IMG/VR virus record: IMGVR_UViG_2534681674_000028
Span: 1-40,960 of that record
From: a virus
Taxonomy: Duplodnaviria; Heunggongvirae; Uroviricota; Caudoviricetes
Length of the DNA: 40,960 bases
Direction: 5' to 3' (one strand)
The position numbers were made by a program. Shown here piece after piece: positions 15,001 to 18,000 of the stretch; position 1 is the first letter of the stretch; each line of letters opens with the position of its first letter.

Positions 15001-18000
15001 CAACGTCTGACTGAATGCCAGCCTGCTCCCGTCGCTCTCTCCAGTTGTGATATCGTCATGCGTTCATTTTTGCGTACCAGCCCGATAATTCGGGCCTTCA
15101 GTTCTTCACGCTGTTCGTGTGTAAAAGGTTTCGCCATAAGCGCCTCCGGCAATCACTTTTCCGACACAATACGACCGGATGAATCGACAATCTGCCGAAC
15201 AATATCCCGGTGCTTGTTCAGCTCCCGCAGCGCGGCGCAGACACGCTCCCACTTCTGAACCTGACCTTTTGCCCGGCGCAGCTCGCGGTTAGCCACATGC
15301 AGCGATGGTAAAATCAGACCATCCGGATGTTTTCTGGTGAACAACGGCTGTGACTGCACTGTGACCGCCACACTTTCAGTTTTTATTTCTTCCTGTGTTT
15401 CCGCTTCCCGGACTGGTAACGCAACACCTGTTGGCTGAGGAAAGGCTTTACCATCGGTTTCCACTACGGATGCAGCTTCCGGCTCTGCCGGTAAATCAGC
15501 GCCCGGTATGCAGTAACGAAATTTACCATCCTGATTCACGCGAATCAGACGCCCTTTGCTGATTGCCATTGCCAGCGATGAATTCGCACGGCGGGAGGTA
15601 ATTCCGAACATCAATGCCAGCTCATCCGCCGTTTGTGGGCCATGATGTTCAATCGCCTCAGTCAGCATTTGCGCTGTCACTTTCGGTACCGGTGACACTG
15701 GTTCACTTTCACCAGTCTGAGTCAGCCACCACATCGACCCCTTGTTATCCGCTTCACCACGGCGCTTCAGTTTCCACAGTTCGTTGACAGCATCTTCGCG
15801 GCTGATTCCAAGGCGCGATGCCACTACCTGTGAAGAGGCTTTTTTCAGTGCTTTCAGTGCGTCAAATACAGTTTCCATTAAAACGTCCTCCAACAAAAAT
15901 TACTTCACAACCCTCTGATTGCTGACATTTGGACGCCAGCTATCCCAGTTAAACGTCACCCATCGACCACCGCTCATGGTCATCCGGTCCATAATCCTCT
16001 CACCAAGAAGCGTGCTCATTGCGGCATGATTCAGGTTTGTTAACATCCCGACACTGCACAGTGATGCTGTCCGGCGATCAATTATCTGGTGTAATACCAC
16101 CTGCTCGTTTTTCGTCTCCCGCTGAACGCCTATTTCATCCAGGACCAGCAAATCAACACTGCAAAGCTCCTGTAAAAATTTTTCCCCGGATTTGCCGTTG
16201 TCGTAGCTGTCATGCAACACGCTCATGACATCAGACACGGTGACGATAATCACGCTGCGCCCCTTCGCCATCAGCCGGTTACCCATCGCCGCTGCAAGGT
16301 GATTTTTCCCGGTGCCGGTTTTACCGCTGAACACAAAATTCGTGCACCCGGTCATCAGTTCGTCAGCTATGGATTTGGCCTGGCTCAGCGCGTATTTTTG
16401 CCCGTCGTTCTGCACCTGATAATTCGCAAACGAGCATTTGCTGTGCAGAGGCTGGATGCCCGAACGATTCAGGATTTTTTCCACCCGCAACTGGCGATTC
16501 TGGCGGTTAATCTCCTCGCTGCGTTTTCGTCCTTCAGCAAGTTGCCATTCCCGCCACTCCTCCACCGTCCGGTACGGTGGAACCGCCCCCTGTGGTGCAA
16601 GTCTGCGAATACGTTCAAGAACCCCAACTGCCGCAATGTTTTTCATGACACGTCACCCCCTGAATCCCGGCGGTATTTCAGTGTCCGGTTCAGAAATGTG
16701 ATTCACGCAACGCTGGTTGTTCGTGCCGCTTACCGGGAGCAACCAGGAGTTTTCAAAATTCCGGTCCGGCCCAAAAAACGTCGTCGCTCGCTGAACAAAT
16801 TCCGTTCCCGCTTTCCCGGTCGCCGCCAGGTATCTCGCGTAACGCCTCACACCATCCAGCATGGTCTCTGGTGGCACCCCCTCGCGCAATCTGGCCTTCC
16901 AGGCACTGAATGCGGATTTCTTCGGGTTTGCTCCGGCACGCAACGGGTACTCCCGCCAGACCTGTTCGAACACATCCGGATAATCCACTCGTCCCACAGA
17001 CTGCCCGGTGTTTTCCGGGACTACCCGATCGGCTTCCCGCTGAATGGCGGAATCGGCTTCGGGCTGCTGCAGTTGGTGTGATTGCTCCGGCCTTGCGGTC
17101 ATCACCTGCTGCACAGCGCCCGAATCGGCTTTCAGCGCATACGCTGAATCGGCTTCCGGTGTCGTGCCTGCTGGCTGACCAGGATTGACGGTCTGAACAT
17201 CCCCTGCCTGGTTCGTGGCGTTTTTTACGCCATGGACCATAGTGTTTTGATCTTCTTGATCTGTATCTTTATCTGTATCTTTATCTGTATCTTTATCTGT
17301 CGTGACTCGTCGTGACATGTGCGTGACATTTCGTGACGCGCCGTGACAATCGCCATTTTGTTCCCGCTTTCTTTCCCTCTCTCGCTGCGCCCTCTTGCGC
17401 TCTGCAGGAGATTTTGCGGTTTGCGAAATATTGCCGTTGTCCTCTTTAAGCACCTGGCGTTTTTCCCATCCAGTGATTAAATCACCATCAAGTACCCGCC
17501 CCTGCATCGTCTGCAAAATTGAATCAATTACCTCTTCTGTCACGTCGAGCGCACTTGCCAAATCTTCTGTCGTGACATCAATGTGACCTCGCGTGACATT
17601 TCGTGACGCGCTCACCAGGAGGTGGATATACACTGCCATCACTGTTGCAATTGGCTGCCCTGACACCCTGGCAATTGTTCGCCACTTAGGGTCATTTGGC
17701 ATGTCATGCCATAATCTGAGCCAGGCGTTAGCCATACTCACCTCTTCTGATACCGAATCTTTTTACTCACGAGTTGCCGGAAGCGATTCGATATGGCTAT
17801 TGTCAGTCAATGAACTGCCACAGCATTTCCTGCCGGGCCACCACGGTTCATCTGATTGAAACCGGCGATTGCCACTGCTACAAAATCATCAGCGTCTCTC
17901 ACCAGTCGCTCCCGCGTCTCCACCAGCTCCCGAAAATAAGCTGAACTGTGGCTGCGCATTCTGGCCACCAGCAAAGGTGGCATTGCCTTTTCGATCGCTG

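Follow-up and report, generated by a model that had tools for sequence, protein, structure and literature searches.

A putative lambda-style replication origin within the initiator gene of a lambdoid prophage

The window analyzed here is a 40,960-nucleotide stretch of viral DNA (Caudoviricetes), corresponding to positions 1 to 40,960 of the IMG/VR record IMGVR_UViG_2534681674_000028. It contains a minus-strand gene for a predicted replication initiator, in which short direct repeats recur once per helical turn and adjoin an AT-rich, purine-rich tract. Judging from sequence comparisons, these repeats and the tract likely form (probability of about 0.8) a lambda-style replication origin of a lambdoid prophage, located inside the coding sequence of its own initiator. 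A first-pass annotation of this DNA had already proposed that phased repeat clusters mark a probable origin in this gene. This proposal is supported by cores which occur independently of the reading frame, by phased repeats in 67 of 79 relatives, by substitutions confined to the spacers and by the helicase-loader gene located next to the initiator gene. The features on which the argument is built are the following:

16653..17735, minus strand: replication initiator gene, 360 amino acids from ATG 17735 (the listing of open reading frames starts it at GTG 17741)
17571..17607, minus strand: iteron array A, four sense-strand GTCAC(G/A) cores, 10/10/11 bp apart
17539..17544, plus strand: single inverted core copy, 33 nt downstream (gene sense) of array A
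17301..17347, minus strand: iteron array B, five sense-strand GTCACG cores, 10/10/11/10 bp apart
17240..17300, minus strand: AT-/purine-rich tract, proposed DNA-unwinding element; sense strand ACAGATAAAGATACAGAT... then GATCAAGAAGATCAAAAC; includes the 12-mer repeated 3.9 times (17254-17300)
17209..17239, no strand assigned: imperfect inverted repeat, 13-pair stem and 5-nt loop, TGGTTCGTGGCGT-TTTTT-ACGCCATGGACCA, just downstream (gene sense) of the AT tract

Phased cores and an AT-rich tract in the initiator gene

All the repeats, including both arrays in their entirety, lie inside the initiator gene, as first annotated. This minus-strand open reading frame, listed as 16653-17741, belongs to phrog_3729, and its product matches the corresponding 'replication initiation protein' profile over its full length (E 2.6e-254, residues 3-362 on profile positions 1-356 of 356). 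The true start codon is probably the ATG at 17735, behind a GAGGTGA Shine-Dalgarno sequence.

On the plus strand, Tandem Repeats Finder delineates a 12-nt unit repeated 3.9 times (17254-17300, 97% matches), which runs directly into array B, composed of CGTGAC at 17301, 17311, 17322, 17332 and 17342 with a spacing of 10/11/10/10 bp. The first-pass description of four tandem units leading into five CGTGAC motifs 10-11 bp apart was accurate, as was that of a second cluster about 270 bp away. Indeed, array A comprises CGTGAC at 17571-17576, 17592-17597 and 17602-17607 together with TGTGAC at 17582-17587 (spacing 11/10/10), and the first cores of the two arrays, at 17301 and 17571, are 270 bp apart. 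Relative to ATG 17735, array A spans +129..+165 and array B +389..+435. The cores of both arrays share the same sense and consist of 6 bp, one per helical turn. This clustering is far above expectation, with 9 of the 21 CGTGAC sites of the 41-kb window located within 307 bp (expected 0.125, Poisson P ~2e-14), i.e., 29 per kb inside this region vs 0.3 per kb outside. No further GTCACG cluster was found in the 41-kb window.

The nine sense-strand GTCAC cores fall in reading frames 2, 0, 1 and 0 in array A and in frames 1, 2, 0, 2 and 0 in array B. A period of 10-11 bp is not divisible by three, and every frame contains cores, which accordingly represent a feature of the DNA and not a peptide repeat. 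When synonymous codons were permuted with the amino acid sequence and codon usage held fixed, the mean GTCAC count was 2.7 vs 9 observed, and neither this count nor the observed number of phased pairs was attained in any of the 5000 permutations of the window gene. The phasing of the Aeromonas and Pseudomonas homologues was likewise unreached in synonymous permutations.

The tandem ATCTGTATCTTT units had been regarded as iterons by the first-pass annotation. This assignment has to be revised: the 12-mer repeat, which encodes (TDKD)n as originally stated, is the AT-rich element and not an iteron. A candidate for the flanking AT-rich unwinding element which had been suggested as a check is found here: the tract at 17240-17300 adjoins array B and has a GC content of 28% (17240-17299). 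The lowest 60-bp window nearby, at 27%, is the GC minimum of the replication region, a value reached by only 0.04% of the 60-bp windows in 15900-18500. On the sense strand, the tract contains 72% purines, and two GATC sites are located in its region (17249 and 17258). An assignment of the GATA tract as a DnaA-trio-like or DnaD-recognition-like element was considered and set aside, the motif fit being too loose for such a claim.

The inverted repeat at 17209-17239 has a predicted DNA fold of -8.7 kcal/mol (z -2.9), and a promoter and terminator scan inside the initiator gene returned nothing beyond chance except this element. The lambda origin likewise has a palindrome beside its AT-rich region. 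Phage POCJ13 retains the repeat, with a single stem pair changed from T:A to A:T. The repeat may belong to the origin, although its membership is uncertain because it is not present in relatives which have other C-terminal modules.

Conservation, core switching and modular exchange

The DNA of the initiator gene is 96-97% identical to that of phages Tritos, Evi and vB_EcoS-689R5. Array B contains five cores in 74 of 77 E. coli prophage copies from IMG/VR and four in the other 3; substitutions are found only in the spacers and none in the cores, and the tract varies from 2 to 8 hexamer units. Such length variation would be anticipated for a repeat prone to slippage, the exact length of which is uncritical.

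More distant homologues preserve the same organization. Aeromonas phage pAEv1818 and Pseudomonas phage phi1, with N-terminal domains ~70% identical to that of the window, have two GTCAC(G) arrays at the same offsets (+129..160 and +389..430 from the ATG), array B comprising 3 and 4 cores, respectively. The inverted copy following array A occupies the same relative position in Tritos, in an O157:H7 variant and in phi1, and is doubled in pAEv1818. Both arrays of Ralstonia phage Hennie are built on the core GCAACG (A at +130..161, B at +391..431), and those of a spring-water phage on CGAACGC. Array A of the O157:H7 variant is extended to six cores by a 21-bp insertion, which provides two iterons and seven additional residues (TCHGVSL).

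To extend these observations to the species level, 79 loci were scanned, one per species, with N-terminal identities from 99% down to 35%. They originate from Proteobacteria, Acidobacteria, Nitrospirota, Planctomycetes and others, and were searched de novo for any pentamer phased at 10/11 bp. At least three phased copies were identified in zone B (+320..480) in 67 of the 79 loci, and in 41 of the 79 the same pentamer was also phased at least three times at +117..225. The 145 flanking control segments gave counts of 0 (52 segments), 2 (92) and 3 (a single one). The cores fall into classes which vary by clade, namely GTCACG (28 loci), GAACGC (19), GTGACG (8), GTAACG (6) and GCAACG (3). Core positions contain 1.4-2 bits of information, five anchor positions having 2 bits by construction, and spacers 0.1-0.7 bits. 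Some of the loci in which phasing is not clear contain VT-rich segments suggestive of cores at another spacing. Two others, from a Serratia metagenome-assembled genome (L131) and from Pantoea (L143), encode a winged-helix domain fused from about residue 100 to a different domain with a YVYYV..GIS.NPWAR motif, and have no phased repeats.

The tract is conserved to a similar extent. In 66 of 67 loci, array B is succeeded by a homologous tract, usually 8 nt off the last core, and in 52 of the 66 this tract starts 7-9 nt after the start of that core. The 40 nt past array B average 65% AT vs 43% for the region, the value being higher in 66 of the 67 loci, and are 75% purine. Across lineages, the tract is read in three different frames (49, 11 and 6 loci), giving the peptides DKDK, DTDT, REE/IREE or QIQ. 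Because different lineages read it in all three frames, the tract is constrained as DNA too.

These data bear on the possibility that the whole region is nothing other than coding low complexity, i.e., a VT/SR-rich peptide and a TDKD repeat produced by replication slippage, and functionless as DNA. The 12-mer is indeed a multiple of three which encodes (TDKD)n, its 2 to 8 hexamer units are reminiscent of a slippage-prone microsatellite, and the encoded region is predicted to be disordered. However, the core period is not divisible by three and all three frames are occupied, 0/5000 synonymous permutations match the cores, the cores and their phasing persist among relatives while the peptides diverge, and the purine tract is found in three frames across lineages. 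An explanation by coding alone, which the first-pass annotation had itself identified as the outcome that would count against an origin, is disfavored by the frames and the permutations and appears extremely improbable. A peptide repeat only was accordingly rejected on the basis of the reading frames, the synonymous permutations and the three frames of the tract.

Comparison of these loci further indicates that the N-terminal domain is exchanged together with the repeats, as a single unit which is combined with at least four different partners. In the window and in the Aeromonas phage, the partner is a DnaC-like loader, in O157:H7 a DnaT-like domain plus a lambda-P-like protein, and in Pseudomonas and Ralstonia phages DnaB-type helicases. 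The O157-type variant, found in L008 (O157:H7 FRIK804, 948-1991) and also in L009 and L012, has the same N-terminal domain and origin with six array A cores, followed by a DnaT-like single-stranded DNA-binding C-terminal domain and then by a 153-residue lambda-P-like protein replacing the DnaC-like loader. Two circular 50.9-kb P. aeruginosa 'plasmids' with phage genes, L178 (CP137943.1) and CP124671.1, which have no replicon type in PLSDB, encode an initiator of this type (73% N-terminal identity) and, after it, a DnaB-like helicase; both probably represent phage genomes, episomal or replicating, which use this module.

The converse situation, in which the C-terminal module is shared and the N-terminal domain is another one, is illustrated by phage POCJ13 and by YdaU of the Rac prophage, both of which have different repeats in the same layout. 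The POCJ13 protein is 49% identical to the window protein overall, the identity being concentrated C-terminally, and has a different N-terminal domain. Its gene contains AGCCCCTT-type repeats at 11 bp, an inverted pair 230 bp away and then its own purine tract, (CAGGAA)n. The gene for Rac YdaU (DUF1376) contains four GTTCAA-type repeats at irregular spacing followed by a AATAAAGATACAGATAAAGATC purine tract (L173, MG1655 Rac, 3472-3625). These GTTCAA repeats and the AATAAAGATACAGATAAAGATC tract in ydaU may be the sequence basis of oriJ.

As homology between the window and the O157 variant stops exactly at the 3' end of the GATA tract, this tract marks a mosaic joint. This raises a second possibility, according to which the repeats would be sites for another host or phage protein, or a recombination 'linker' at the joint where N- and C-terminal modules are swapped, with no direct role in initiation. 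In favor of this explanation, homology to variants with other C-terminal modules ends precisely at that boundary, a near-identical tract (AATAAAGATACAGATAAAGATC) occurs in Rac ydaU despite the unrelated N-terminal domain, and linkage alone could account for the co-variation of repeats and domain. However, across Escherichia, Aeromonas, Pseudomonas and Ralstonia phages, the N-terminal domain is the only gene product always encoded with the repeats, the upstream regulators and downstream loaders being different, and a linker would leave unexplained 3-6 helically phased cores, a core shared by two arrays and the joint switching of this core. A role in recombination or for another protein alone is considered very unlikely, and a function as mosaic joint could be compatible with origin function.

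The main argument that the N-terminal domain reads the cores is that it is the only protein which always accompanies a given core. This argument is indirect, as the repeats are physically located inside the gene for that domain. A broader proposal, for now tentative and rather doubtful, is that these loci represent an uncharacterized, pan-bacterial class of phage origins in which an array within the coding sequence of its own reader domain is combined with a concerted switching of the core and a sequence-specific single-strand purine element. In this proposal, GTCACG, GAACGC, GTGACG, GCAACG and GTAACG would have been switched repeatedly, both arrays changing together, while the (C)AGATA(A/C)AGATA-type tract, always placed 8 nt from the last iteron and kept in three frames, would be recognized by the initiator or the loader and not merely easily melted.

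Initiator architecture, proposed mechanism and known origins

Pfam searches with the whole initiator gave no family at E<=0.01, and searches with its isolated domains gave nothing above threshold, with no Phage_rep_O even at E<=10. The sub-threshold Pfam matches are HTH_Crp_2 and Phage_rep_org_N (PF09681), the latter being co-linear (residues 5-78 on model positions 1-78) with 12.9 bits vs a cut-off of 23.3 (E 0.11). Weaker PHROG matches correspond to 'replisome organizer' families (1.5e-7 and 1.3e-5). In phage records, the gene is labeled 'DNA replication protein O', 'primosomal protein I' or 'replisome organiser', and in RefSeq mostly 'hypothetical protein' or 'phage replisome organizer'. 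A DnaT-like tail, PPGFRG, terminates the C-terminal domain, and the last 25 residues weakly resemble the DnaT C-terminal tail, the only match obtained in NCBIfam.

In an AlphaFold2 model built with 55 homologues, the N-terminal domain is confidently predicted as winged-helix-like (predicted local distance difference test, pLDDT, >90 for residues ~11-90), with the order helix/helix/long-helix/loop/helix/helix/beta-wing. It is followed by a low-confidence stretch, a basic helix (ERKRAQRERERKRE) and a disordered segment at residues 131-165 (pLDDT <50). According to this model, array A encodes a surface loop between the long helix and the next helix, where the O157 insertion also falls, and array B and the AT tract encode the disordered interdomain linker. 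Since the encoded parts are a loop and a disordered linker, the arrays and the tract lie where the protein tolerates change.

The next gene downstream begins 6 nt past the initiator stop codon:

15900..16646, minus strand: DnaC/YdaV-like AAA+ helicase loader (NF009043, 506 bits; IstB_IS21 and Bac_DnaA ATPase domains)

This loader is 80% identical to Rac YdaV over 248 residues and is not a lambda P homologue.

Based on this organization, a mechanism can be proposed in which the winged-helix N-terminal domain of the initiator would bind the 6-bp core GTCACG. As this core recurs once per helical turn, the bound proteins would form head-to-tail arrays on one face of the DNA, and arrays A and B, ~260 bp apart, may be bridged. 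The resulting nucleoprotein complex would melt the purine-rich AT tract adjoining array B (17240-17300), including (ATCTGTATCTTT)n. The C-terminal domain and its DnaT-like tail would then recruit the DnaC/YdaV-like loader encoded downstream, which would place the host DnaB on the opened strands. The identity of the core binder, the start of unwinding and the recruitment of the helicase are all steps that we infer. Because distant relatives often have no array A, array B and the tract look like the minimal origin; array A may strengthen the assembly or add autoregulation.

PhoB/OmpR-type winged-helix domains bind head-to-tail on direct repeats with a 10-11-bp period. The analogy is mechanistic only, these transcription factors being unrelated to replication, and indicates that one domain per helical turn is sterically feasible. 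Iteron plasmid origins (P1, F, R6K and pPS10) also consist of direct repeats bound by a winged-helix initiator beside an AT-rich unwinding region. Unlike the present cores, their iterons are 17-22 bp long and located outside the rep gene, usually with DnaA boxes, and Rep has two winged-helix domains. No DnaA box (TTATNCACA with <=1 mismatch) was found in 15298-20422.

Plasmid iterons have both roles, in initiation and in autoregulation or copy control, which is one reason to consider that the initiator binds its sites here mainly to regulate itself, by transcription block or array 'handcuffing', with unwinding and helicase loading taking place elsewhere. Consistent with such a role, array A, separated from the AT tract by 260 bp, is absent from many distant relatives, which would place it outside the minimal origin, and early rightward-type transcription from the immunity region would pass through both arrays. 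However, the succession of array B and an AT-/purine-rich tract at a fixed distance in 66/67 loci is the signature of an unwinding element and not of an operator, the window contains no second GTCACG cluster, and the layout and gene offset agree with the experimentally defined lambda and SPP1 origins. A mainly regulatory function is for these reasons regarded as unlikely, and initiation at array B and its tract as the favored interpretation.

The comparison with lambda is the most instructive. As in the lambda origin, including those of the Shiga toxin (Stx) phages 933W and P27, the putative origin lies inside the initiator gene, with an AT-rich tract following direct repeats located ~350-430 nt into the gene (PMC7466680). 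In both systems, it falls within the linker which connects an N-terminal DNA-binding domain to a C-terminal domain which recruits, or in the window would recruit, the loader, and the helicase-loader gene comes next. The two additional lambda-type iterons of Stx phages, which add 13 residues to the O protein (PMC7466680), parallel the seven residues added in the O157 variant of the present initiator. Unlike in lambda, the cores are 6 bp with 4-5-bp spacers of low information and a 10-11-bp period, in contrast to 18-19-bp iterons every ~20-24 bp (the annotated lambda iterons, at O-gene offsets +349..433, are 18 bp each with starts 20-24 bp apart). In addition, the window gene has a pair of arrays separated by 260 bp, one within the sequence encoding the DNA-binding domain itself, and the loader is DnaC-like, not lambda P. 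The designation of the gene as 'O-like' with a lambda-style origin is hence appropriate with respect to the layout, the offset and the loader gene but not to ancestry, as there is no detectable homology to lambda O.

Similarly, oriL of phage SPP1 is located inside gene 38, with direct repeats as well as an AT-rich unwinding element (PMC6316719). In this Bacillus phage system, which relies on the organizer G38P, the loader G39P and the helicase G40P, the organizer gene also contains the origin, whose short direct repeats are adjoined by the AT-rich element, and the name 'phage replisome organizer' is given by NCBI to members of the present family. Unlike in the window, the repeat sequence is another one, and SPP1 has a second origin elsewhere. 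The gene 38 repeats, with a 9-nt spacing, lie at +361..448, an offset close to those of the lambda iterons (+349..433) and of array B (+389..435). This shows that lambda O, SPP1 G38P and the present initiator have no detectable sequence similarity and yet have, or in the present case would have, their origin at nearly the same offset in an interdomain linker.

The Rac prophage, which has been reported to hold an active origin, oriJ (PMC3945230), shares with the window the gene order Cro-like, CII-like, initiator and DnaC-like loader (ydaS-ydaT-ydaU-ydaV). The C-terminal tail PPGFRG and the KDTDKD/GATA tract are common to both initiators. YdaU differs by its unrelated N-terminal DUF1376, for which the window initiator has no Pfam match, and BLASTP similarity is restricted to the C-terminal 19 residues plus the linker. 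The comparison with Rac-type prophages suggested by the first-pass annotation is thus borne out for the loader, 80% identical to YdaV, and not for the YdaU N-terminal domain and its repeats.

Several observations weigh against an origin read by this initiator. In the full-text literature searched, binding, unwinding or origin activity has not been reported for any member of the family. Alignment of the family profile by hhalign gave a probability of 0.1% both against lambda O and against SPP1 G38P, with a sensitivity limited by the single-sequence targets. A Foldseek search of the AlphaFold2 model against the PDB returned no match at E<=0.001; its best non-significant matches are nearly all winged-helix DNA binders (MarR/MepR, CRP/FixK, GntR, ArsR and the plasmid RepA_N initiator) and, as none is significant, they are taken only as a hint of the fold. 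Clearly phased repeats are absent from ~10-12 of the 79 relatives, and array A from many of the distant ones. Residues co-varying with the core type were sought outside the segment encoded by array A, and the class consensuses were found to differ everywhere, in step with phylogeny. Physical linkage partly explains the co-variation of repeats and domain. Finally, the prophage copy in the window, which carries IS3-family elements, may be defective and never fire.

Prophage context and significance

The genes upstream of the initiator are those of an immunity and early-regulation region:

17807-18232, minus strand: YdaT/CII-like gene
18216-18497, minus strand: YdaS/Cro-like gene
18523-18591: divergent promoter-like sites
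18598-19017, plus strand: DicA-like repressor, divergent

Together with the initiator region, this set is the early-right operon of a lambdoid prophage, and these upstream genes would drive transcription through the origin. The two genes at 17807-18497 match the Pfam families 'toxin YdaT' and 'toxin YdaS' and, among PHROGs, CII-like activator and Cro-like repressor families, the latter being consistent with their operon position; the toxin names look outdated.

A DicF antisense small RNA (20635-20686, plus strand; Rfam 75 bits) is located ~1.6 kb past the repressor, as in Qin-type prophages and in phage Tritos. Two adjacent small RNAs, AgvB (4063-4124, plus strand) and STnc100 (4125-4333, minus strand), are found near a weak Rfam tRNA match (4453-4512, minus strand; 37 bits) which was not called by ARAGORN. 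The ALIL pseudoknot of Rfam, which is the frameshift signal in IS3-family transposases, occurs three times, at 10758-10875 (minus strand), 26992-27108 (plus strand) and 30905-31021 (plus strand), which implies at least three insertion sequence copies in or around the prophage.

Of 5426 complete E. coli genomes, 2237 contain DNA matching 17150-17760, among them those of O157:H7 and further Shiga-toxin strains, with one 100% match in the chromosome of strain 2013C-3264. This module is very common. Its gene is mostly annotated as 'hypothetical protein' in RefSeq. No description of these repeats, or of the origin of this initiator family, was found in the full-text literature searched, which includes few subscription journals, and an earlier in silico mention is possible.

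An origin would explain the conspicuous and variable repeat inside this gene, and knowledge of the origin together with its initiator would offer a handle on prophage amplification after induction. Natural initiator/iteron pairs, available by the dozen with different 6-bp cores, could serve for studies on the co-evolution of binding specificity and an overlapping protein code, or for the construction of orthogonal replicons. If the broader and more tentative proposal of concerted core switching is true, these loci would represent a natural series of matched initiator/iteron specificities.

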